Shown here: in pieces, positions 2,642 to 41,732 of the stretch
Numbering within the stretch: position 1 is the first letter of the stretch
How the letters are laid out: each line of letters starts with the position of its first letter
Assembly (NCBI GenBank): GCA_002720865.1
Contig: PBIO01000025.1
Span: 17-64,016 of the forward strand
Length of the DNA stretch: 64,000 bases
Direction of reading: 5' to 3'
Origin: Halobacteriovorax sp.
GTDB lineage: Bacteria; Bdellovibrionota; Bacteriovoracia; Bacteriovoracales; Bacteriovoracaceae
Notes under the pieces: model-generated
What the model saw: only the letters and a program-made list of their open reading frames with translations
Databases searched by the model: none
Told to the model about the DNA's origin: nothing
Program-made: the position numbers and the translations under genes

Positions 2642-2920
2642 ATGAATGGCGATAATGATAAAGATGGCATAATACCAAATAGTACATGCCATGGTGAACA
2701 TGAAAGATATGAAATAAAATGTGAAAAAAAGTCGTGCAAATATTGGCACGACTTACCCGACAGTCAGAATTGTATCATGATAGCTGCACGTAATGGGGAA
2801 CATACGCTACAACAAATAGGAGACATCTTTGGTGTCACAAGAATGAGAATATGCCAAATTGAAAAAATAATCTTTAAAAAGCTTTTAAAAAGATCTGATA
2901 TTCATTCAACCGTTGACTAG
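2642..2920 (+). CDS. small protein with sigma-70 region-4-like HTH
   Basis: C-terminal EHTLQQIGDIFGVTRMRICQIEKIIFKKLLKR fits the sigma region 4 pattern; Cys/His-rich N-terminus; only + strand gene in the first 18 kb. Confidence 0.55.
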   Translation: MNGDNDKDGIIPNSTCHGEHERYEIKCEKKSCKYWHDLPDSQNCIMIAARNGEHTLQQIGDIFGVTRMRICQIEKIIFKKLLKRSDIHSTVD

Positions 2921-4128
2921 TTTTTCATCCCACCAAACATTGTTATTGCAATTAATCCAGGAATTGAATCCTTAATATAGATTCCGGAAAACAATGTGTT
3001 TGCTCTTCCACCAACATATGCCGTAGCAGCCTCGAGCCGCTTACTAATATCCGGATCCGAAGCCATTAAAGAGGTTGCTAGCAACAATAGCACACCGGTC
3101 TCAGGTCCTTGTGTGGGGGCCGGACATGGTGACCCCTTAATGGAACCTTGGAGGAGAGTAGAGCCTATGTCACGCCCTCCTGTGTCCTTAACCACAGTAC
3201 TACCTAAAAAGATTCTTCCTGGAGTCTTAAGACATTTTTCTAAATCATTCGAATCAAATGCAGAAATAGATGAACTTTCATTAGCTAGTTTAAGGACCTG
3301 ATGTAATAGTTTTGCAAAAGAGTTATTTGCAGCAGGGTACATATTCAACAGGCCTACTTTACCCCTAAGTAATTGTAGTTGTCTTTCATTATCAATTATA
3401 ATATGAGGATTACCGGTAACATCATTAAGTGCAGTTGTGTAATTATTTTCAATTGTTGGGTTTAAAAGCTCTTGTGCAGTAGGCTTAGTAACAACATATA
3501 TAACACCACCCCCGGCCTCTATGGACTTAAGATACCTAGCTAGTGCATGAGTAAGGATAGAACTAGCAGATCCAGTACCACCTCCGCCACCAGCCAGAAC
3601 AAATACCCAATCGACATCATTACCGAGCCGGCTTCTACATGCATCTTCAACTAATGCACTATTTTCTTGAAGCAGCTTCTTTCCTAGTTCAATATCTTTT
3701 CCAACACCGTCTGATCCGGGGATTAAAACTACGTGATTTGAATCTACCCCATCCGGAAGATCTTTTTCCGTGGTATTAACAATTAATGTTTTATTAAACC
3801 CTAGATCTAAAAAAGCTTTTGCCAATTTTCCGCCGGCACCGCCGACACCGATAAAGGCACACTTTAATGCACTAGTAGCTGTATTCTCGGGTAATAGTCT
3901 ATCATCCTGGACAACTTCATCATCCATTCCTCCAACAAATCCCCAATCATCAACATCATTGATGTATGTATCGTCTGTCGTTTGGTCGGTATCTTTAGTA
4001 CTCATATTTTTTTCCTCTAAGGTTTCATCTTTTTGTTCATCGGCCTTTTTATAGGTAGGTTGTTTAAGATTGTTATTATTAACCTTTTTCCTAACTTTTG
4101 TAAACGCGGCCTTAATGCTACTAGCCAT
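2917..4128 (-). CDS. FtsZ/tubulin-superfamily GTPase (phage tubulin-like)
   Basis: GVGGAGGK G-box, GGGGGTGSA tubulin signature, IIIDNERQLQLL resembling the FtsZ T7 region; acidic ~90-aa N-terminal extension; GGAG RBS. Confidence 0.85.
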   Translation of the reverse strand: MASSIKAAFTKVRKKVNNNNLKQPTYKKADEQKDETLEEKNMSTKDTDQTTDDTYINDVDDWGFVGGMDDEVVQDDRLLPENTATSALKCAFIGVGGAGGKLAKAFLDLGFNKTLIVNTTEKDLPDGVDSNHVVLIPGSDGVGKDIELGKKLLQENSALVEDACRSRLGNDVDWVFVLAGGGGGTGSASSILTHALARYLKSIEAGGGVIYVVTKPTAQELLNPTIENNYTTALNDVTGNPHIIIDNERQLQLLRGKVGLLNMYPAANNSFAKLLHQVLKLANESSSISAFDSNDLEKCLKTPGRIFLGSTVVKDTGGRDIGSTLLQGSIKGSPCPAPTQGPETGVLLLLATSLMASDPDISKRLEAATAYVGGRANTLFSGIYIKDSIPGLIAITMFGGMKN

Positions 4129-4142
4129 GGTTTAACTCCGAA

Positions 4143-4505
4143 TGGTGGAGACGGCGGGAGTCGAACCCGCGTCCGAAACAAATCTAATATCAAGTCATTC
4201 ACAAGTTTAGTTAATTTCTCTAAATCAACAAAGTATCCACAAATTTTCCCACTTCCTATGTAGCCTCGGAAGTCCACCCATTACAAATGGGGTATCCATT
4301 GTGGTCTTGTTTATTTCGGTGGGACCAACCACTTATCCTAAATTGGTTAGATGGCTTTAGGAAGCCACCCGATTATGCCGCTAGGGCGTATTCGAAATTA
4401 TCGTTGTTATTTGCAACTATATTTTGTAACGCTATCAAACCATGTGTTACCGCTGGTTACTTGCACTCTCAACCTTCATTACTCCGTCGAGACCATTTCG
4501 TCCCC
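4143..4505 (-). ncRNA. ssrA: tmRNA (one-piece, 363 nt)
   Basis: 5' GGGGACGAAATGGTCTCGACGG and 3' GGACGCGGGTTCGACTCCCGCCGTCTCCACCA; 7-bp acceptor stem with G3-U70; internal tag ORF ending ALAA-TAA. Confidence 0.92.
4373..4414 (-). other. tmRNA tag reading frame ANNNDNFEYALAA-stop
   Basis: GCA AAT AAC AAC GAT AAT TTC GAA TAC GCC CTA GCG GCA TAA on the minus strand. Confidence 0.85.
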
Positions 4506-5759: not shown

Positions 5760-6230
5760 TTATTTTGCATGCTTATCTGCGACAAAGGCAGCCCAGGAAT
5801 CAGGCTTAACTATACACTTATACCCCATTGATAAAACAAAGTTCTTTAAAGCCTTAAGGTGCTTCGAACTTTTATGACGGGGATCCGGATTAAGATCAGC
5901 ATGTACTGTAATATCTCTGCTTATAAGATTTGCTTTAAGCATTTCTGCTATTGATATTGACAAATCAGTTTCTCTTTGAAGCCTATATCCCAATGCATTA
6001 TACTTCTTTAAAGATTCCTTGTGCCGACTTACATAATACGTCCCACCATTTCCTGGAACATATAAACATATGACAGTCGCAAATACATACACATCTTTAA
6101 CTTGTTGAGAATCTGTGCCTACATGAATTTCGAAATCTAAATTACCCAGAATATGTTTAACAATTTCTTTATATTCTACATTGATTCCTGATCCGTTAAT
6201 CCATATATTCTTTTGCCATTCATCAACCAC
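5760..6230 (-). CDS. YkuK/DUF458-like RNase H-fold protein (tentative)
   Basis: IHVGTDSQ motif and ~155-aa size recall the YkuK family. Confidence 0.5.
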   Translation of the reverse strand: MVDEWQKNIWINGSGINVEYKEIVKHILGNLDFEIHVGTDSQQVKDVYVFATVICLYVPGNGGTYYVSRHKESLKKYNALGYRLQRETDLSISIAEMLKANLISRDITVHADLNPDPRHKSSKHLKALKNFVLSMGYKCIVKPDSWAAFVADKHAK

Positions 6231-6250
6231 TAGAAGTATTACCTTTTCTA

Positions 6251-7654
6251 TTACGTTTCTTGATCAAGAACTAAAAATGCGCCGGTATTATTAATACTAC
6301 TTGCAGCATAGAAACCACCCATAATTCCATGAACCAAACTTAAAGCAGGCATATCAATAAATCCTAAACCTTGTAATTCGTTCATTATATCATTAAGTAT
6401 TTTTGTAACAAAGATGGATCCAGTCATTTTTTTTAAATCAGGTATATGAATAATGCCAGACCTATTAACCGTTGATAATATTCCTATTCCCGTTCCTGCT
6501 CTTTCTAACGTTAGGGGCAATATATCATTATAATCATGACCAAAAGAAACGCGAGTGCAGATAGATGTTAGGACCTTTATTCTATCATCAATTAATCTAG
6601 ACTTTTCTAAGACATGAGATTCTTTTTTTTGTTCACTTAATTGTGCAATATGCTTTTGAACATTACGGTACGTATTTTCATTTTGTATTACAACAGTACT
6701 TTCGTCAATATCAACTCGGGGAACAGTAACTATTTCATCAATATTAATTGATGAAATTAATTCTCCCTTAAGGGAAGATACGACATCTGTGCCACATATT
6801 ACTGCTATATCTTTTAATAAATTTGACCCAAATAAATCATAAGGAATGACAACAGGAATAATGTCCAATGACTGCCTTTTAAAGTTTAAGCCTAAGGTAG
6901 CTGTAACTTCTTCAGAACAACCTCTACAGAAAATAACTCCAGGCTCTTTTGTTTCTGATAATGTGCTTAAAATATGATGTACCTCAGAGACAGATTCTAG
7001 GATGCCATCAATAACAAAGCATTTAACATTTGATCTTTTCCATCTACTTACTTTTGTTGGTACCCAAAATTCCCGTAATGGTGTAACTGGAACCCTGTAG
7101 CCCCTGTATGTCTCTATTACGGTATCATCTTTTGACAATGGATCTAGATATATTTGTCCATTATGACCACTTAATCTTGCAGCTGTAAAAATAATTTTTG
7201 AAATAATAGGATTTGAAATATAGTTTTCTAAAATCTTTCTACTATTGTTTATTGTTGTTATTCTTGAAAACCTAGATAGCTCACTGATAATATCTTCAAA
7301 CTCATTTAAATCTAACCTATGATTAAATGCTTTAAGCTTAAGGACCTCTTCAAGAACGTATAAGAATGTAATGCAGTTGACAATAGAGCTTCCTGGTGCG
7401 GCCTTCTCGTAGTCTATAAGAGACTCTAAGAGTATATTTCGTACAGTTAGCCTTATTGAATCGCTACAATGGCGATTAATTATAATTTTCTTAATATCAA
7501 TAGCAGAAAACGCTACATAGCGATCATTAGATACATACCCTAATTTCGATGCTGCTAATAATTTTAAGTCTTTTTTAAGCTCGCCTATATAGTCAACTAT
7601 GGTTGATGTTGAGTCATTATATGCTATAAGCTCCGAATAATTTTCTAAGGTCAT
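6251..7654 (-). CDS. divergent chaperonin (Cpn60/GroEL-like) protein
   Basis: [27 protein letters not shown] aligns by eye to GroEL [34 protein letters not shown] sits where GDGTTTA would be. Confidence 0.45.
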   Translation of the reverse strand: [467 protein letters not shown]

Positions 7655-8067: not shown

Positions 8068-9996
8068 CTAGCCGTCGCGCCAAAGATTGTTGCTAGCATA
8101 CCTTAAGATCTCTTCTGCAGAGTCTTCACTATAACCATATTCTTCAATCATAGTACTAACCATGTCACCATATCGTTTTTGCTGGTCGTCATCCCTAGTC
8201 TTACTCTTGGTAACAATCCGGGCCATATCTTTGACAGATGTAATTAGATAACCCTCAATAGCTTCTTTGAGAGGTTCATAACTTCTATAATCTACTATAT
8301 CGCCGCGTCTCATTCTTGCGAACATATACGCAGTAACATCACTCCTGAAGCCGTCCCTGCTGGAACCAATGATGCCGATTTGTTCTTCAATCGATCTCAT
8401 AAACTCCTCATCGGGCTCTCGCTCTTCTTTAGTGATTCCGTCCTTTACACGTTGGCGTGTTGTAAATGCTTCAGCATTATCAAGGTATGTATCAAAAAGA
8501 GCTTGAGCTTGTTCTTCGTATGCGGTGACAAATGCTTTTGCAATTTCTGTCTCTAGTATTTTTAGATACTCTTCTCTTACACCCTGTAGGATTTCTAAGC
8601 AACTATCTTTAAAATCTTCCCGAATAATCTGATCTTTGACTTGTCGGGTTAGAGATTTTAGAATTGAAACAGGGGTAATCATACTCTTTTCAGCGTCAGA
8701 TAAAGCATTATCAATTGATTTCATAATAAATCTTGTTGAGATTCCTTCCATCCCTTCCCGGGGGGCAGCCTCATCTTTAAGATCTTTGATATCAATTTTC
8801 TTGACCCTACCTTTTTCTATAACATCTTCACCGTTATAGATTTTCATCTTCGTTAAGATGTCACACTTTGCAGATGCTTTAAGCCTAGATAAAACTGAAA
8901 ACATTGAGGCAACCTTTAATGTATGAGGTGCGATGTGTGCTTTGAAATCAGATCTAGATAAAAGCTTTTCATAGATTTTAATCTCTTGATCAAGCTCTAA
9001 AACATATGGTACATTAATCTTAACAATTCTATCTAAGATTGCCTCGTTGGTATGTTCTGCCCGAAACCTATTCCACTCTGCTTCGTTGCAGTGCGCAAGA
9101 ATAACTCCATCAAAATGAATCATAGCATTTTTTCCTGGAGACGGAATCCTTTTTTCCTGCGTTGCTGTAATTACAGTATGAAGAAATTCAATTTCATTTT
9201 TAAAAACCTCAATAAGCTCCACAATGCCTCTATTACCCACATTAAATGCACCATTCAATGACAGTACTCGTGGATCATCTTCAGGAAATAAATCTAACTT
9301 AGATATATCCTCTGACCCAATAAGTACTGAAACATCTTGGCTGTTTGCATCCATCGGTGGGACGGAAGCAATCCCCCTTCGGGCCCGTGCTGAGAACGTT
9401 CTTTCAACAACAGGAAAATTTTCATACTGGCCATCATGATCTTCAAGCAGTTTGTGGCGGGCCACTGGACTTAGATCTCCTTCAATCTTAACCTTTAAAA
9501 TCTTTTCAAATTCTTTTCGCAACCCGCGCGGAACCAAATGCAATGGCTCACCACATTGAGGATCACCTTCAAGGCAATAGTATTTCTCTCCCTCTAGGGC
9601 AGCCTTAATATGTTCTGTTAGCGCAGACTTACCGGCCCCAACCGGTCCCATAAGTAATAGAATTTGCCGGCTCTCTTCACCTTTAAGTGAGGCAGACTTG
9701 AGGAACCGCATAAGTTTTGCGATTACTCTTTCCATTCCAAAAAATTCTGAGTCGAAATAGTCATATACCTGAATATTCTCCCCATCAAACAGCTTATGGT
9801 TCCTAGATATATCTGACATAACACCAGAACCTTTATTCGCGATGGCATCATAAAGACGCTTATGAGCCAACCTTATAATATCTGGATTCTTTTGAACTAA
9901 ATCCAGATACTCTAGAAAAGTCCCTCTAAACTTTTCTTCCTGATTCGTATCTCGTTGTTTCTGAATCAGATTCAAAAATTTCTTTTTATCGGTCAT
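8068..9996 (-). CDS. prkA: PrkA/YeaG-family AAA+ serine protein kinase
   Basis: 642 aa; QILLLMGPVGAGKSAL Walker A in PrkA-like context; adjacent to SpoVR and YeaH homologues. Confidence 0.9.
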   Translation of the reverse strand: MTDKKKFLNLIQKQRDTNQEEKFRGTFLEYLDLVQKNPDIIRLAHKRLYDAIANKGSGVMSDISRNHKLFDGENIQVYDYFDSEFFGMERVIAKLMRFLKSASLKGEESRQILLLMGPVGAGKSALTEHIKAALEGEKYYCLEGDPQCGEPLHLVPRGLRKEFEKILKVKIEGDLSPVARHKLLEDHDGQYENFPVVERTFSARARRGIASVPPMDANSQDVSVLIGSEDISKLDLFPEDDPRVLSLNGAFNVGNRGIVELIEVFKNEIEFLHTVITATQEKRIPSPGKNAMIHFDGVILAHCNEAEWNRFRAEHTNEAILDRIVKINVPYVLELDQEIKIYEKLLSRSDFKAHIAPHTLKVASMFSVLSRLKASAKCDILTKMKIYNGEDVIEKGRVKKIDIKDLKDEAAPREGMEGISTRFIMKSIDNALSDAEKSMITPVSILKSLTRQVKDQIIREDFKDSCLEILQGVREEYLKILETEIAKAFVTAYEEQAQALFDTYLDNAEAFTTRQRVKDGITKEEREPDEEFMRSIEEQIGIIGSSRDGFRSDVTAYMFARMRRGDIVDYRSYEPLKEAIEGYLITSVKDMARIVTKSKTRDDDQQKRYGDMVSTMIEEYGYSEDSAEEILRYASNNLWRDG

Positions 9997-10045
9997 ACCA
10001 GTTAACTCCAGTTTTCGATAGGCATTGCATATTCATTTATAATTA

Positions 10046-11356
10046 TTAAATCTCCCAGGGTTCTTCTTCAACTATAGTCAATAGTTTAACAGTGTCTCCC
10101 CATAGAGTCGAAATATGCTTAACAACTTCGTCTGCATAATTCAATTCTAAATCTCTTCCATCATGTTCATGTTGTAAAACTAGCACATTTCCCTCTTTTT
10201 CTACATCAATAACATTTATCTTTGGAATTGTACCTTCCCCCACTCCTTTGATAAGGCTTTCTTTAATATTTTTCCACCCATCAACGTCAGATATTTCATC
10301 AACAGAATAAACACCCTTTCGTTTTTTTGAATATGCAAATAAATTTAAGTCCTTACAATCATCTTCGATTAAGTATTCTCTTAAAAAGGATTGATCATTT
10401 CCAACTTCTCTAGCCAAGAAACACCTGTCTAACCCATGCCTCTCTTCAATCTTTTCGAACAATTTAAATCCAAGATGATATGGATTAACGGCACCAATAT
10501 GTGGCCTAATAACTTGGTTATGGCTCTTAATAAATGGTATATGATATTCTTGAGGTAATTCTAAAGCATTACTAATTCTGTAATGCCAAAAAGATGCCCA
10601 CCCCTCATTCATAATCTTCGTACGAATTTGGGGCATAAAATATAATGATTCATCATGTACAATTTCTAATATATCTTTTTGCCAGTCTTTAATTCTTCCA
10701 TGTTCAATTATAAACTTTAATACATCATACTGGGGTTCGAGAGGAATCTTGTCGATATCAAAATCAATATATTGACCATCAGTATCGTTCTTAATTCTAT
10801 CAGTATATGTTTTCTTTAACTCTTTATGTGTGGGGCGATCTAGCTGATATCTGTCAATTTGATATTTTACTGCGTGTGCAGCATCTAGAATTTCCTCAAC
10901 TTTTTCAATTCCAATACTGGGGTCTTCAATATAGCCCTGGATTCTTTTTCTAGCATTTCGAAATCTTCCGCAAACTGAATTCGGCCTAGTCTTTGCAAAC
11001 GTTCTATTATTTTTAAAAAAATCAGAGTGACCAACACAATGGGCCATAATCAAGATCTGCAGATAGGCAGGATTTTCCCGCATCAAATATGCTATTGATG
11101 GGTTTGAATTGATAATAAGCTCATAAGGTAATCCTTCGGCACCCATATTATACATCTGATGTGTTCTTTCAAATGACTTACCATAAGACCAATGTTGGTA
11201 ATGGCTTGGCAAACCATGATAGGACATGTGCCCTATCATTTGGTAATAATCACATACCTCGTATGTAATTGGATGCCAATCTAGACCTGCATCTTCTGCG
11301 ATCCTACAAATCTTTTCGTCCCATTCTTCTAGGAGCTTAAAATTCCAATCTGACAT
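10046..11356 (-). CDS. spoVR: SpoVR/YcgB-family protein
   Basis: 436 aa; MAHCVGHSDFFKNN motif typical of SpoVR. Confidence 0.88.
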   Translation of the reverse strand: MSDWNFKLLEEWDEKICRIAEDAGLDWHPITYEVCDYYQMIGHMSYHGLPSHYQHWSYGKSFERTHQMYNMGAEGLPYELIINSNPSIAYLMRENPAYLQILIMAHCVGHSDFFKNNRTFAKTRPNSVCGRFRNARKRIQGYIEDPSIGIEKVEEILDAAHAVKYQIDRYQLDRPTHKELKKTYTDRIKNDTDGQYIDFDIDKIPLEPQYDVLKFIIEHGRIKDWQKDILEIVHDESLYFMPQIRTKIMNEGWASFWHYRISNALELPQEYHIPFIKSHNQVIRPHIGAVNPYHLGFKLFEKIEERHGLDRCFLAREVGNDQSFLREYLIEDDCKDLNLFAYSKKRKGVYSVDEISDVDGWKNIKESLIKGVGEGTIPKINVIDVEKEGNVLVLQHEHDGRDLELNYADEVVKHISTLWGDTVKLLTIVEEEPWEI

Positions 11357-12546
11357 TATGAACTTCCCATCGCTAATTTTCCACCAAATAGCATCTTAAA
11401 AGCAGGCCAAATATCAGACGCCTGTGTAATTTTTACAGTCTTAAACTTTTGATCTACTAGGGGCTCATATGCATTAGATAATTTAGTCCCTTCAGATAAC
11501 CACTTAATTCTCTCTTCATCAGGCTCAATTTCACAATAACAATACATCTGACTAGCTAATTTAAGTTTTGTAGAGAGATCTTGGATCTTGTCCATATCAT
11601 TTGGCCAGTTATCTCCATCTGAACAATGAAATGAGTATATGTTCCAGGACGTCGACGGATACCTTTCTTTAATAATCTCAAGTGCCAACTCTACAGCAGA
11701 AGAGGCAATTGTTCCCCCGCCGGCGCCTCTTTTAAAGAATTGTTCTTCATTTACTTCATATGCCTGTGTGTCATGTGCAATGAAAACAAGATCAGTATTT
11801 TCATATCTGTGATTAATAAATTGGTATAATAGAAAATAAAAGCTTCTAGCCAAAAACTTTTTTTGTTTTGTCATAGAGCCAGAAATATCCATCATAAAGA
11901 ATATGACAGCGTTACTAGTCTCTTTTGTTGTTTTTTGTATATGCTTATATTTTAGGTCATCCTTATGAAATGGAAACCTAGAGTCCTCATCATCCGGATC
12001 ATATGTGCCAGCACGCTTTGCTGCGCTACGTCTCTTGATTTTTTTAAGCAATGTCTTCTTTTTATCAAGTCGTGGCTTAATACCAAAATCTCTATAGCCA
12101 TGCCTCCGAAGTTTTTCGGATAGTATTTTTTTCATTTGCTTTTTCTCAAGCTCAGGTAATTCTAAGCTATCAAACAAATAAGCAGCAAGTTCTTCTAGGG
12201 TAATTTCGACATCATAATACTCGACGCCCCGTTCATTTCCAGGCTTGTCACCCTCACCTTGCTCTTCATTTTGTGACCTACCAACCTGTTGGCCACGTTT
12301 TACATTTTTCCCGGGCGCAGATCCTACTCTCTGATTATTTTCATTATCGCCATACACAAATTGGTATTCTTTGATTCCCCGTACAGGGATGCGTATCTTC
12401 TTTTTGCCCTCTTTACCAATAATAGATTCGTCTGCAATAACATGATAGATCCCCTCACGAATTGCCTTTTCGATCTTTTGTTTATGTCGGCTTTTGTCAG
12501 ATGCTGATCTGTCAGCCGATATTCTATGTTCTTTGAAGATAGACAT
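11356..12546 (-). CDS. yeaH: YeaH/YhbH (DUF444) VWA-like protein
   Basis: 396 aa; basic N-terminus, FFMMDISGSM MIDAS-like motif; 1-nt overlap with spoVR. Confidence 0.88.
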   Translation of the reverse strand: MSIFKEHRISADRSASDKSRHKQKIEKAIREGIYHVIADESIIGKEGKKKIRIPVRGIKEYQFVYGDNENNQRVGSAPGKNVKRGQQVGRSQNEEQGEGDKPGNERGVEYYDVEITLEELAAYLFDSLELPELEKKQMKKILSEKLRRHGYRDFGIKPRLDKKKTLLKKIKRRSAAKRAGTYDPDDEDSRFPFHKDDLKYKHIQKTTKETSNAVIFFMMDISGSMTKQKKFLARSFYFLLYQFINHRYENTDLVFIAHDTQAYEVNEEQFFKRGAGGGTIASSAVELALEIIKERYPSTSWNIYSFHCSDGDNWPNDMDKIQDLSTKLKLASQMYCYCEIEPDEERIKWLSEGTKLSNAYEPLVDQKFKTVKITQASDIWPAFKMLFGGKLAMGSS

Positions 12547-38382: not shown

Positions 38383-38577
38383 ATGTTAGATAGATATAGA
38401 GAGTGGATTTCTCATATGTCAGATGGTCAAGCTGACCTAATGGCATCTTTTGGTTACCTGGTGTGGTGTAGCTTACTAGTAACCGGAATATTATCATACG
38501 GTGCTGGTGCTTTAATACCTATGGTTCTATCTTTTGGCCTGGCCGGTGTATTAACTGCATCCGTATACATTCATTAA
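38383..38577 (+). CDS. small membrane protein
   Basis: GAGG RBS; two hydrophobic helices. Confidence 0.55.
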   Translation: MLDRYREWISHMSDGQADLMASFGYLVWCSLLVTGILSYGAGALIPMVLSFGLAGVLTASVYIH

Positions 38578-39392
38578 ATGCAATCCTCAACATATTCAGG
38601 CCAGTATTGAAGTACTTCTGCCTGTGAGAAAAATTCATTCTGAGAATCTGTCCAGTGCTCCGGAGCATCATTTCTTGATATATTTTCAGTCCCTGTACCA
38701 GACCTCTGATGCCATGTGTGACAAAAATACTCTTTGGCAGCGGTCATGGCAACCTTGTCCTCAATATATTTGCATTTGTATTCAAGTGCTGGATCACCAG
38801 AATCCCAAAATGGCCAGGCCTTAATAGAAACCCACAGGGGTACCAAGCCATTCGCCTCATTGTCAATTGATAATATTTCACCATTCTCATCTATCCCAGT
38901 TATAAAGGGGTATGTGTGCTGACGTGGGGTACTGTAAAACATATCTTGGTCTGAACAGGCGTTTCTTAAGAATATATCCATTCTTGCATCTTCAGTTGTT
39001 ATCCAGAATGGATCCATATTGGAAAATGCGCCAGCTTCGATACCAGCAACTATTCCATGTATTAGAGATTCGAAGCTATAATCTAGATAATACAAAGGTT
39101 GGCCAGAAGGTGCTATCTGCGCCTGACGTTCATCAGGAGCTCCGTCTCCAAAAAGCCTCGGCCTTAATATCCGGTTCGTTGCATGGTCGATATAGAACTG
39201 AATTGCCTTCTCAATTTCTTCAGAGAAGACAGGTATCTGGTCAACATCAATCTGTTCTCCTGGGTCAGGAGGTATAATATGTTGAGATGGTTGATCATCA
39301 ACTTCCTGAATGTCAGGTGTGTTCGTTGTTGGTAGTTCAGTTTCTTGAGAATTTGCTTCGTGGATGCTGGGTTGGTCTGGGTTATGATAGTT
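38574..39392 (-). CDS. open frame continuous with the upstream gene across TGA 39393-39395 (the track ORF 38574..39095 is its 3' part)
   Basis: 99 codons between the TGA and TTG 39095 contain no stop and no ATG/GTG/TTG; the sequence is protein-like (acidic/Pro linker, then EEIEKAIQFYIDHATNRIL...). Confidence 0.5.
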   Translation of the reverse strand, partial: NYHNPDQPSIHEANSQETELPTTNTPDIQEVDDQPSQHIIPPDPGEQIDVDQIPVFSEEIEKAIQFYIDHATNRILRPRLFGDGAPDERQAQIAPSGQPLYYLDYSFESLIHGIVAGIEAGAFSNMDPFWITTEDARMDIFLRNACSDQDMFYSTPRQHTYPFITGIDENGEILSIDNEANGLVPLWVSIKAWPFWDSGDPALEYKCKYIEDKVAMTAAKEYFCHTWHQRSGTGTENISRNDAPEHWTDSQNEFFSQAEVLQYWPEYVEDCI

Positions 39393-40217
39393 TCAATTTT
39401 CAATAAACTCTATCAACAAATCAGAAATATCATAGGCAGTCTCAATCAACACTTCAATGCTAGTACGTTCTTCTTCTGTAACATCTTCTTTTAAAGTAAC
39501 CGGGAGGGAATCTAATAGGTCTTTTGCTTCTTTAGGTGATAATCCGGTTATATCCCGCACCAACTTGATCATATCGACTTTCTCATTTAGGTCATAGCCA
39601 TGAAGCCGAACAGTATAGCTAACATCGTCAGCCGGTGGGGTAATAGTTTCTTCATCTTCATGAGAATCCTGCGTCATGAGCTCTGCTAGACTTACTTTCA
39701 TATTGTTCAACTCAACAGCAATATCTGCACATAACTTTTCATTTTTAGCAATTTCATTTTTGAGTGCGTCAGTTGTTTGTTGTTCACGTTTTTCAAGATT
39801 GTTCAGCGCGTCGCTGTTGCTCTTGGTCTTACCCCAATGTTTGTCAATAGCAGTACTTAAAGCCTCAATCTCGCCAACAAAATGTTCACTGATTGCCTTA
39901 TCACAGCGGTTTGCAATTTCTTCTATTACGTCAATTCGCTTTGAGATCTTATCTAAGTCTAGCTTTGAGTCTAATTTAGACATCTCGTCTATAACCCTGT
40001 GTATGTTATCCCATATCCTTATTTGATCCATTGCCATTGTTGAAATAGATGACATGTATGAGCTCAAGGTTTGTTCAATTTCTTCATCGCTAGCATCTGA
40101 GCTTGCTATTACCTTTAATAGCGCAGATTTTCTTTCTAATTCAATCTCTTTTTTTATCTCTTTTTTAAGATCTTCATTATTTTTCTCTATTCCAAATAAT
40201 CTTAATATCCAGCTCAT
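39393..40217 (-). CDS. coiled-coil protein with ribosomal L7/L12 C-terminal-domain homology
   Basis: KVDMIKLVRDITGLSPKEAKDLLDSLPVTLKEDVTEEE matches the bL12 CTD pattern K..VIK.VR..TGLGLKEAKDLV...P..KE.V.KEEA; start set at ATG 40217 (MSWILRLFG). Confidence 0.7.
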   Translation of the reverse strand: MSWILRLFGIEKNNEDLKKEIKKEIELERKSALLKVIASSDASDEEIEQTLSSYMSSISTMAMDQIRIWDNIHRVIDEMSKLDSKLDLDKISKRIDVIEEIANRCDKAISEHFVGEIEALSTAIDKHWGKTKSNSDALNNLEKREQQTTDALKNEIAKNEKLCADIAVELNNMKVSLAELMTQDSHEDEETITPPADDVSYTVRLHGYDLNEKVDMIKLVRDITGLSPKEAKDLLDSLPVTLKEDVTEEERTSIEVLIETAYDISDLLIEFIEN

Positions 40218-40362: not shown

Positions 40363-40794
40363 ATGAAAAATATAAGCTTACTTGTTTTTACTAGCCTTAT
40401 GCTAACTGCTTGCCCGGGCCCGGGTCCACAGTATCATGCACCGGCTGAGAGTTGCGTTAAAGAGTACTCATACGCAATGCGAGCACTAGCTGCTGTCGAC
40501 CGTGGGGTGGGCGAAGATAGTGTGGAAGCTAACGAGCATGCATGTGACGCGTCATGGGCGGCATTCGTAGATTCAAGCATGTTAGATTCCGATGCACTTC
40601 CAGATTGGTATAGGTGGCATAATGAGCTATGGTTCAGCGATGAGCTTAAGGATGCAATGCCACAATGTCGTGGGAATGACGGGACTAGTGAGTATCACGC
40701 ATGGACACTTTTAAAAGACGATGAAGTTATGAGAGTGCGATGTACACTTAAGTGTGATGGTCATGACCCGGGCTCTTGTGAACAACCAGAATAG
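40363..40794 (+). CDS. Cys-rich lipoprotein
   Basis: signal peptide with lipobox MLTAC. Confidence 0.65.
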   Translation: MKNISLLVFTSLMLTACPGPGPQYHAPAESCVKEYSYAMRALAAVDRGVGEDSVEANEHACDASWAAFVDSSMLDSDALPDWYRWHNELWFSDELKDAMPQCRGNDGTSEYHAWTLLKDDEVMRVRCTLKCDGHDPGSCEQPE

Positions 40795-40892
40795 CTTCTT
40801 TTTGAATTAATGTAAGGTTTAGTGCAATACCATTGTATATTTATTTGGTGTCAAGGGTGATAAATTATCCCTCTTAATCCTAAGGATATACA

Positions 40893-41246
40893 ATGAAAAA
40901 CTTTACTTTACTTTGTTCTCTGTTGTTTTTGGTGGGTTGTCCAACACCTACCCCTGAACCAGAGCCGGATCCGCCCGAGCCAGTTGTCGAAGTACAATGT
41001 CAAACAATTGAACGATGTCAATTATTAGTGCAAGCATGCTTAAATGAAATGTGCCCAAAGTATTTTGCACAAGGTAAGAGTGCTGCCGATGCATTTCAAT
41101 ATTGCACTGTTGATATGACCGCAAGGCACCCTATTATGAGGCAGCATGATTGTGCACAGTGTATCGAAGAAGACCGTAGGATTAATCGTGGCCGAAATTT
41201 CGGGTCGATTATATCCAACGTCGATAGGTGCCAAACCGGTAATTAG
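40893..41246 (+). CDS. Cys-rich lipoprotein
   Basis: lipobox FLVGC followed by a PTPTPEPEPDPPEP linker. Confidence 0.65.
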   Translation: MKNFTLLCSLLFLVGCPTPTPEPEPDPPEPVVEVQCQTIERCQLLVQACLNEMCPKYFAQGKSAADAFQYCTVDMTARHPIMRQHDCAQCIEEDRRINRGRNFGSIISNVDRCQTGN

Positions 41247-41261
41247 CCGAAAGCTTATATT

Positions 41262-41732
41262 ATGATTAAAATAATTTCTGCCGCCTTCGGTATTGCTTTT
41301 GTACTGGCCGCCGCCTGCAGTCCGCAAGTTGAACCGAATACAGGGCATACGTCCCAAGTCCCGAGCCTTTCAGCTTGCCATATATTATATGACTCAGAAA
41401 CACAAACATGGGTAAGGGCAATATTGCCTCAAAACAGTACACAGTTCGAATTATGCGATCCACTCATCGATGATTACAACGTTGAATACGAAGCACAGTG
41501 CCAGCTAATCAATTACGGTACTGTTTTAGGCTATGAAACAGAGCCTCAAAGATTCGAGCTTCTAGAAGAATATTGTTTGGATGAGCCTATCGACGGTCGA
41601 TGTGATACCTTTAACTGCCAAGACGTACATAAGGCAATTAATCCGGACGCGGGTTGGGCATATCCCTCAGGTTGTGTTGCAATATTAAATCGTAATGAAG
41701 GTACATGTACAGCAATGTGGAACGATCAGTAA
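41262..41732 (+). CDS. Cys-rich lipoprotein
   Basis: lipobox LAAAC. Confidence 0.6.
   Translation: MIKIISAAFGIAFVLAAACSPQVEPNTGHTSQVPSLSACHILYDSETQTWVRAILPQNSTQFELCDPLIDDYNVEYEAQCQLINYGTVLGYETEPQRFELLEEYCLDEPIDGRCDTFNCQDVHKAINPDAGWAYPSGCVAILNRNEGTCTAMWNDQ

Follow-up and report, generated by a model that had tools for sequence, protein, structure and literature searches.

Programmed stop-codon readthrough is, to our knowledge, documented in bacterial viruses essentially only for Q-beta-like RNA phages, and the recoding familiar from tailed double-stranded DNA (dsDNA) phages consists of frameshifts, bypassing and whole-code reassignment. Here we analyse a 64,000-nucleotide stretch of contig PBIO01000025.1 (assembly GCA_002720865.1), hereafter the window, in which a minus-strand gene for a protein with the C-terminal domain (CTD) of ribosomal protein L7/L12 ends at an in-frame TGA that is separated by 272 open codons from the next in-frame stop. 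The window is phage DNA: it encodes PhoH, a helicase, an HNH endonuclease, ATPases and members of many PHROG families, and it matches a 176,782-bp Tara Oceans scaffold. The locus is a still unproven case of programmed stop-codon readthrough, and would be unusual for its setting, a translation-related gene of a large dsDNA phage.

The closest working analogue would be the coat/A1 pair of Q-beta (Allolevivirus), reportedly described by Hofstetter et al. in 1974 (cited in PMC7026636). There, as would be the case here, a leaky UGA stands at the end of a complete functional domain and opens onto a long in-frame extension that has no start of its own; a major short and a minor long product are made at a fixed ratio, and no elaborate structure is needed 3′ of the stop. 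Q-beta is a 4-kb single-stranded RNA phage whose A1 is a virion protein, whereas the locus analysed here lies in a dsDNA phage of at least 177 kb, encodes a non-structural protein with a ribosomal factor-binding domain, has an orphan domain as its extension and is known from sequence alone. Hopping over stop codons at matched codons in E. coli, which Weiss, Dunn, Atkins and Gesteland are said to have described in 1987, is a second precedent: matched codons around a stop let the peptidyl-tRNA detach and re-pair 6 nucleotides (nt) downstream. Here too the stop lies between codons of the same tRNA (AAU-UGA-AAC, both Asn), but those hops were low-level events in synthetic constructs, and the matched Asn codons, expected at ~5% by chance, may be a coincidence. 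Stop-recoded phages, with TAG or TGA reassignment and suppressor tRNAs, likewise show an in-frame stop within conserved coding sequence of a large phage; they carry many such stops across their late genes, whereas there is exactly one in these 64 kb and TGA otherwise terminates normally. On the protein side, the phage bL12-domain proteins of Mizuno et al. 2019 (PMC6375957) resemble the one described here in having a CTD with the EF-G- and EF-Tu-contact residues, in lacking the ribosomal N-terminal domain, and in placing the domain inside a larger phage polypeptide of otherwise unknown function. Those proteins are continuous open reading frames (ORFs) from cultured phages with genomes <80 kb, and no in-frame stop at the end of the domain has been reported for any of them; the present protein has no detectable sequence relatives beyond its own two lineages.

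The upstream ORF starts at ATG 40217, with AAGGA ~10 nt before it, and reaches TGA 39395–39393 after 274 codons, in the context GAA AAT TGA AAC TAT (Glu-Asn-stop-Asn-Tyr). The same frame then runs on for 99 codons (39392–39096), which we call the bridge and which contain neither a stop nor an ATG, GTG or TTG, and from TTG 39095 for 173 more codons to TAA 38576–38574. A preliminary description of the locus had given this layout together with the bridge peptide, and both were reproduced on the minus strand, as was its statement that TGA also terminates other genes: of 42 confident minus-strand genes, 8 end in TGA, phoH among them. Leaving aside the L12-domain gene, the remaining seven meet a further in-frame stop within 1–24 codons, compared with 272 here, and nowhere else on the coding strand of the window are two long open segments divided by a single stop that is followed by a long start-less stretch. 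The further argument that so long an open frame is unlikely by chance holds only in part. An A/C-rich composition (A 0.40, C 0.30, G 0.13, T 0.17) makes open frames less remarkable in the first half of the bridge, and across bridge codons 1–47 the +1 frame has no stop either. Dinucleotide shuffles are stop-free in 10.6% of cases for codons 1–47 and in 5.7% for codons 48–99, or ~0.006 jointly. The real support for a bridge that is more than chance lies in its substitution pattern and codon usage.

We compared ten copies of the locus, the window and nine others (L002–L010; L001 and L007 are one contig), which fall into a window-like lineage 1 (L002–L004) and a lineage 2 (L005–L010). The TGA is present in 10 of 10 independent marine assemblies, drawn from two diverged lineages, at least 8 samples and four sources (Tara/ENA, NCBI, JGI and Logan), at the same position and with the same open frame after it in every copy. 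A sense codon in its place, which comparison with relatives might have revealed, was found in none of the 10 assemblies or any protein collection searched, and no relative was found in which the two parts are separate genes and the second has its own ribosome-binding site and start. The lineages differ at 24% of residues in the N-terminal half, and the lineage-2 L12-domain protein is 309 amino acids (aa) long, has a 35-aa insertion and is 76% identical to that of the window. Homology between lineages extends from the ATG of the L12-domain gene to the TAA that closes the downstream ORF and no further, the flanks holding different genes that cannot be aligned, so the stretch from ATG to TAA is inherited as one cassette. 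No stop, frameshift or indel has accumulated in the 272 post-TGA codons in either lineage, and a 120-nt stretch around the TGA (39319–39439) shows zero lineage differences between flanks that differ by ~4.5%; we estimate the probability of a gap that large anywhere at about 0.07.

This conservation is shallow in depth, the two lineages being closely related. Further homologues of either half were absent from a word-indexed search of 5.8e9 protein clusters, and distant relatives were found neither by exhaustive HMMER search of 1.84e9 representatives, nor in IMG/VR (by protein and by junction pattern), in GTDB genomes (by pattern and profile) or among INPHARED phages (blastn and tblastn). JGI metagenomes yielded one more lineage-2 copy and nothing else, and in the protein databases the downstream part forms a single 90%-identity cluster of 8 sequences. 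One lineage-2 contig, k141_2379040 (L010), has an extra in-frame TAA (GAA to TAA, at 2403–2408 of that contig) 86 codons upstream of the TGA, which splits the L12-domain gene in that assembly and may reflect either variation within the population or faulty assembly.

The bridge differs between lineages at 11 positions, all of them transitions. In the frame that continues from the TGA (frame 0), ten of these are synonymous and at third codon positions and the remaining one exchanges Ile for Val, an excess over the 32.6% of possible transitions that are synonymous (binomial P=1.1e-4). The synonymous count falls to 1/11 in sense frame +1, which rejects the +1-frame ORF at 39164–39403 (−), to 0/11 in sense frame +2, and to 0/11 in the frame of an antisense ORF at 38912–39277 (+), called with 126–132 aa by some pipelines and likewise rejected; the antisense frame that shares its third positions with frame 0 reaches 9/11 and contains 9 stops. 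Frameshifting is not needed, since the frames on either side of the TGA coincide. All seven substitutions in codons 48–99 are synonymous (P=3.5e-4), as are three of the four in codons 1–47 (P=0.11), at codons 25, 26 and 43, the Ile to Val change falling at codon 40. A codon-usage score trained on 41 confident window genes gives codons 1–47 +0.30 per codon in frame 0, where real genes average +0.25 (standard deviation 0.12) and off-frames −0.60 and −1.15; this score tops all 3000 stop-free dinucleotide shuffles, both for codons 1–47 and for codons 25–47 alone, and the codon usage of codons 48–99 is gene-like too. These data indicate that purifying selection acts on the bridge in the frame it shares with the upstream gene and, on the strength of codon usage and synonymous substitutions taken together, that the bridge is coding in that frame from at least codon 25, with codons 1–24 consistent with coding. 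The signal in codons 25–47 therefore reaches upstream of the only near-cognate start that is preceded by a Shine-Dalgarno (SD)-like motif.

We put at roughly 55% the probability that 40217–38574 (−) is one gene whose UGA is occasionally decoded or hopped, giving a major 274-aa product and a minor ~547-aa fusion. The preliminary description had offered readthrough, a recent nonsense mutation, non-canonical initiation and a sequencing error without choosing among them, and is borne out in part: readthrough, though unproven, is the best supported of the four because the coding signal reaches upstream of every plausible internal start, and passage of the UGA by ribosomes remains once the other entry routes have been weighed. 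The locus has the marks of a readthrough gene, namely a long open extension without a canonical start, purifying selection in the zero frame and a conserved stop. Most ribosomes would stop at the UGA and release a 274-aa protein composed of a coiled coil and a bL12 factor-binding domain, and a minority would pass it, translating a Pro/Gln/Thr-rich linker of ~50 residues and an orphan CTD of ~220 residues to complete the fusion. Passage could occur through near-cognate decoding by tRNA-Trp, through a suppressor tRNA encoded elsewhere in the 177-kb genome (no tRNA gene was found in the window or in ~10 kb of the 176,782-bp scaffold beyond its low-coordinate end) or, alternatively, through peptidyl-tRNA-Asn hopping +6 from the AAU onto the AAC directly after the stop. 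In bacteria, UGA with an A after it terminates translation comparatively weakly. UGA is also the leakiest of the stop codons (PMC7026636). As there is no 3′ stimulatory structure, how often the stop is passed would depend on the UGA-A context or on trans-acting factors, and the outcome would be a fixed ratio of short to long isoform, following the logic of Q-beta coat/A1. If this is correct, the recoding repertoire of tailed phages would gain readthrough at a single, conserved and selected UGA, here in a large marine dsDNA phage, and the product of the gene, carrying a ribosomal domain that recruits translation GTPases, would offer a natural test case for phage manipulation of translation.

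Several observations weigh against readthrough or hopping. The 93 nt after the UGA contain no stimulatory structure (−7.4 kcal/mol, z=−0.9), and for that reason readthrough would probably amount to a few percent at most, low for a domain so strongly constrained. Bridge codons 1–24 are without substitution and have a weak codon-usage signal (P=0.11), so that continuity across the stop is something we infer, and the selection test draws on 11 substitutions from two closely related lineages. The long product is likewise a prediction from sequence, the SD-like AGGAG and AUU inside the bridge provide another route to the CTD, and the 120-nt patch without divergence may mark a recent recombination event by which a nonsense allele was spread. 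An interrupted hairpin at 39376–39425 (−) sits within this patch and is unlikely to act as a stimulator, because at termination the ribosome would enclose its 5′ arm. A promoter and terminator scan gave nothing above shuffle expectation.

The upstream protein matches Pfam PF00542 (Ribosomal_L12 CTD) at residues 202–255 with 45.4 bits against a cut-off of 25.9 (E=1e-11), and PDB L7/L12 chains match it at E=1e-6. The domain aligns to residues 18–67 of the E. coli L7/L12 CTD structure 1CTF, with KVxxIKxVR and GLxxKEAKDL conserved. The helix-4/5 residues (KVxxIKxVR, GLxLKEAKDLV) that it keeps, in segments reading KVDMIKLVR and GLSPKEAKDLL where 1CTF has KVAVIKAVR and GLGLKEAKDLV, are those that contact EF-Tu and EF-G. 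The N-terminal two thirds of the protein are coiled-coil-like and lead through an acidic, Pro-containing linker into the bL12 CTD; Pfam matches in the N-terminal 200 aa are sub-threshold only, with none to Ribosomal_L12_N, the N-terminal dimerisation and uL10-binding domain, and the length departs from the ~120 aa in total of ribosomal bL12. Because the N-terminal domain is absent, this is an L12-CTD-containing phage protein and not ribosomal bL12. The TGA lies ~13 residues past the last aligned L12 residue, at the natural end of the domain.

The ~50 residues after the UGA, rich in Pro, Gln, Thr, Asp and Glu, look like an interdomain linker, and the downstream part as a whole has no family match in Pfam, PHROGs or PDB sequence searches. 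AlphaFold2 modelled the 272-aa bridge plus C-terminal part with a predicted local distance difference test (pLDDT) score of 38, and this low-confidence model places a helix, SEEIEKAIQFYIDHAT, at codons 58–73, which begins within the bridge, far upstream of the gene callers' starts. Those starts are TTG 39095 (173- and 175-aa proteins), ATG 39017 (147- and 149-aa proteins) or later in-frame ATGs, and no SD-like motif precedes TTG 39095 or ATG 39017, though many genes of this phage have one. With the TGA at the end of the L12 domain, a linker-like bridge, a helix inside that bridge, and phage bL12 domains already documented within much larger polypeptides (PMC6375957), a coiled coil, L12 CTD, linker and CTD make a plausible single protein. 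All public gene calls at this locus are wrong alike, in that they begin the downstream ORF at TTG 39095 or a later ATG and leave ~100 conserved codons unannotated. Coordinates of the locus are collected in Table 1.

Table 1. Sequence features of the L12-domain locus and its in-frame TGA, in window coordinates.
Feature	Coordinates	Strand	Remarks
Upstream ORF	39396..40217	−	274 codons; gene callers in public assemblies give exactly this 274-aa protein
L7/L12 C-terminal (factor-binding) domain	39435..39614	−	aa 202–261; ends ~13 residues before the TGA
In-frame TGA	39393..39395	−	Identical in L002–L010
Bridge codons 1–47	39252..39392	−	A/C-rich; Pro/Gln/Thr/Asp/Glu-rich, linker-like peptide
Bridge codons 48–99	39096..39251	−	Predicted helix SEEIEKAIQFYIDHAT and beginning of the C-terminal region
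Downstream ORF, 173 codons and TAA	38574..39095	−	Orphan domain, no family match
AGGAG and in-frame ATT, candidate non-canonical start	39249..39261	−	AGGAG 39261–39257, 5 nt, ATT 39251–39249
Interrupted hairpin, UGA in inner stem	39376..39425	−	−9.6 kcal/mol, z=−2.1; significance uncertain

Among the other explanations, initiation at a non-canonical codon within the bridge is a live rival, which we nevertheless hold to be improbable. It posits two genes, the downstream protein starting best at AUU 39251–39249, with ATC (codon 10), ACG (codon 23) and ATT (codon 28) as other candidates and the A/C-rich stretch as an unstructured leader. AUU starts are known in bacteria (infC), and the AGGAG that precedes this one by 5 nt matches real starts of the phage, for example ccaaggagaaaaaATG, in motif and spacing; the leader is indeed A/C-rich and unstructured, and the substitutions are synonymous in 7 of 7 cases downstream of the AUU, compared with 3 of 4 (P=0.11) upstream. 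Yet the gene-like codon usage of codons 25–47, which beats 3000 of 3000 stop-free shuffles, and the four substitutions at codons 25, 26, 40 and 43 all lie before the AUU, and this coding signal argues against ATT 39251 as the sole entry point. The earlier near-cognate codons (ATC, ACG and ATT) have no SD-like motif, and an AGGAG is expected ~0.4 times by chance in 297 nt, so the motif may be accidental. It is moreover sequestered by a 6-bp hairpin (39236–39275 (−), CUCCUG-ACC-CAGGAG, −9.8 kcal/mol, z=−2.6), in which it pairs with the CUCCUG just upstream and which could make internal initiation depend on ribosomes coming from upstream.

We rank slightly lower, and also regard as unlikely, the possibility that the TGA is a nonsense allele of a former ~547-codon gene that arose once and reached the second lineage by recombination over a short tract, or else swept through before the two diverged. 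The sequence after it would now be untranslated or dispensable and simply undecayed, its synonymous-only pattern reflecting selection before the TGA arrived. The 120-nt patch without lineage differences is centred on the TGA, these phages are clearly mosaic, and the extra TAA in the same gene of L010 suggests that broken alleles circulate or are assembled. Conservation of synonymous sites around a recoding site would explain the patch just as well. A recent private nonsense mutation, as the preliminary description had envisaged, is disfavoured by the presence of the TGA in both lineages and by the 10 synonymous and 1 conservative changes that the bridge has gained since they split. Nor does any version of a nonsense allele sit easily with the lack of a sense-codon allele in the 10 assemblies and the protein collections searched, or with 272 downstream codons free of stops, frameshifts and indels in both lineages. 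Recombination would have to be invoked as an extra, precisely placed event, and the TGA, if it swept in both lineages, is more likely to have been advantageous than null.

Far more speculative is an autoregulatory version of readthrough, to which we give very little weight. In it, the free L12 factor-binding domain that the short product bears on its coiled-coil scaffold would perturb the traffic of host GTPase factors and the UGA would sense the resulting termination state, so that the ratio of short to long isoform would be set by how far the phage, which also encodes a transfer-messenger RNA, has remodelled translation, as in a recoding switch. Mutants of rplL raise nonsense suppression.

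Also very improbable, and marginally more so, is that UGA is a regular sense codon here, whether for selenocysteine or in a code that reads it as Trp or Gly. An in-frame UGA with conserved coding sequence after it is indeed a signature that selenoprotein genes and recoded phages share. Selenocysteine is unlikely: bacterial selenoproteins have a selenocysteine insertion sequence (SECIS) hairpin that begins ~11 nt after the UGA, and the 93 nt there hold no significant hairpin, with no Rfam match and no redox motif around the UGA. A changed genetic code is largely refuted because the remaining genes are intact, none of the others in 64 kb being interrupted by TGA, and because TGA terminators are normal, 8 of 42 genes ending in TGA at sensible gene ends. 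A sequencing or assembly error at 39393–39395, for which nothing speaks, is refuted, because copies from different groups, assemblers and samples, in 10 assemblies and two lineages, all carry the TGA at the same position with an open frame.

The upstream protein shares an RLFG-type N-terminal motif with neighbouring proteins (MSWILRLFG, MSFWARLFG, MGFWLRLFG, MSFWAKLFG and MANWFTRLFG). Proteins with this motif are encoded at 40217 and 42632 (−) of the window and at 5922–6821 and 6925–7449 of L005; after the motif they have a Lys/Glu-rich, coiled-coil-like stretch, their C-terminal parts are unrelated, and pairwise BLASTP matches are weak (E=0.16). The motif may be a shared targeting or membrane-binding peptide of a small paralogous family. 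The 173-aa downstream protein is deposited as MBK26087.1, from a metagenome-assembled genome labelled Halobacteriovorax sp. (101-kb contig); because its genes are those of a phage, the label stems from mistaken binning or else hints at the host.

Elsewhere in the window, a complete transfer-messenger RNA (tmRNA) gene with the tag peptide ANNNDNFEYALAA lies at 4143–4505 (−), between a tubulin-like ORF and small ORFs. It was matched by ARAGORN and by Rfam RF00023 (117 bits, cut-off 47) and is also found in two other assemblies, L011 and L013. The same phage thus carries both a tmRNA and an L12 factor-binding-domain protein, and one report links bL12 to trans-translation (PMC12548414). The adjoining 403-aa ORF (2917–4128 (−)) has a weak Pfam Tubulin match, borders an antisense gene for a 92-aa sigma-70 region-4 protein and may encode a PhuZ/TubZ-like phage tubulin. 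At 8068–12546 (−), adjacent genes for PrkA (642 aa), SpoVR (436 aa) and DUF444/YeaH (396 aa), assigned from Pfam marks on identical L011 genes and from PHROG matches, make up a phage-encoded version of the bacterial trio associated with stress and sporulation. Finally, three consecutive ORFs on the opposite strand (40363–41732 (+); 143, 117 and 156 aa) encode proteins with lipoprotein-type signal peptides (lipoboxes LTAC, LVGC and LAAC) and Cys-rich mature parts, and form a moron-like islet between two RLFG-motif genes; the corresponding genes of lineage 2 differ in size.

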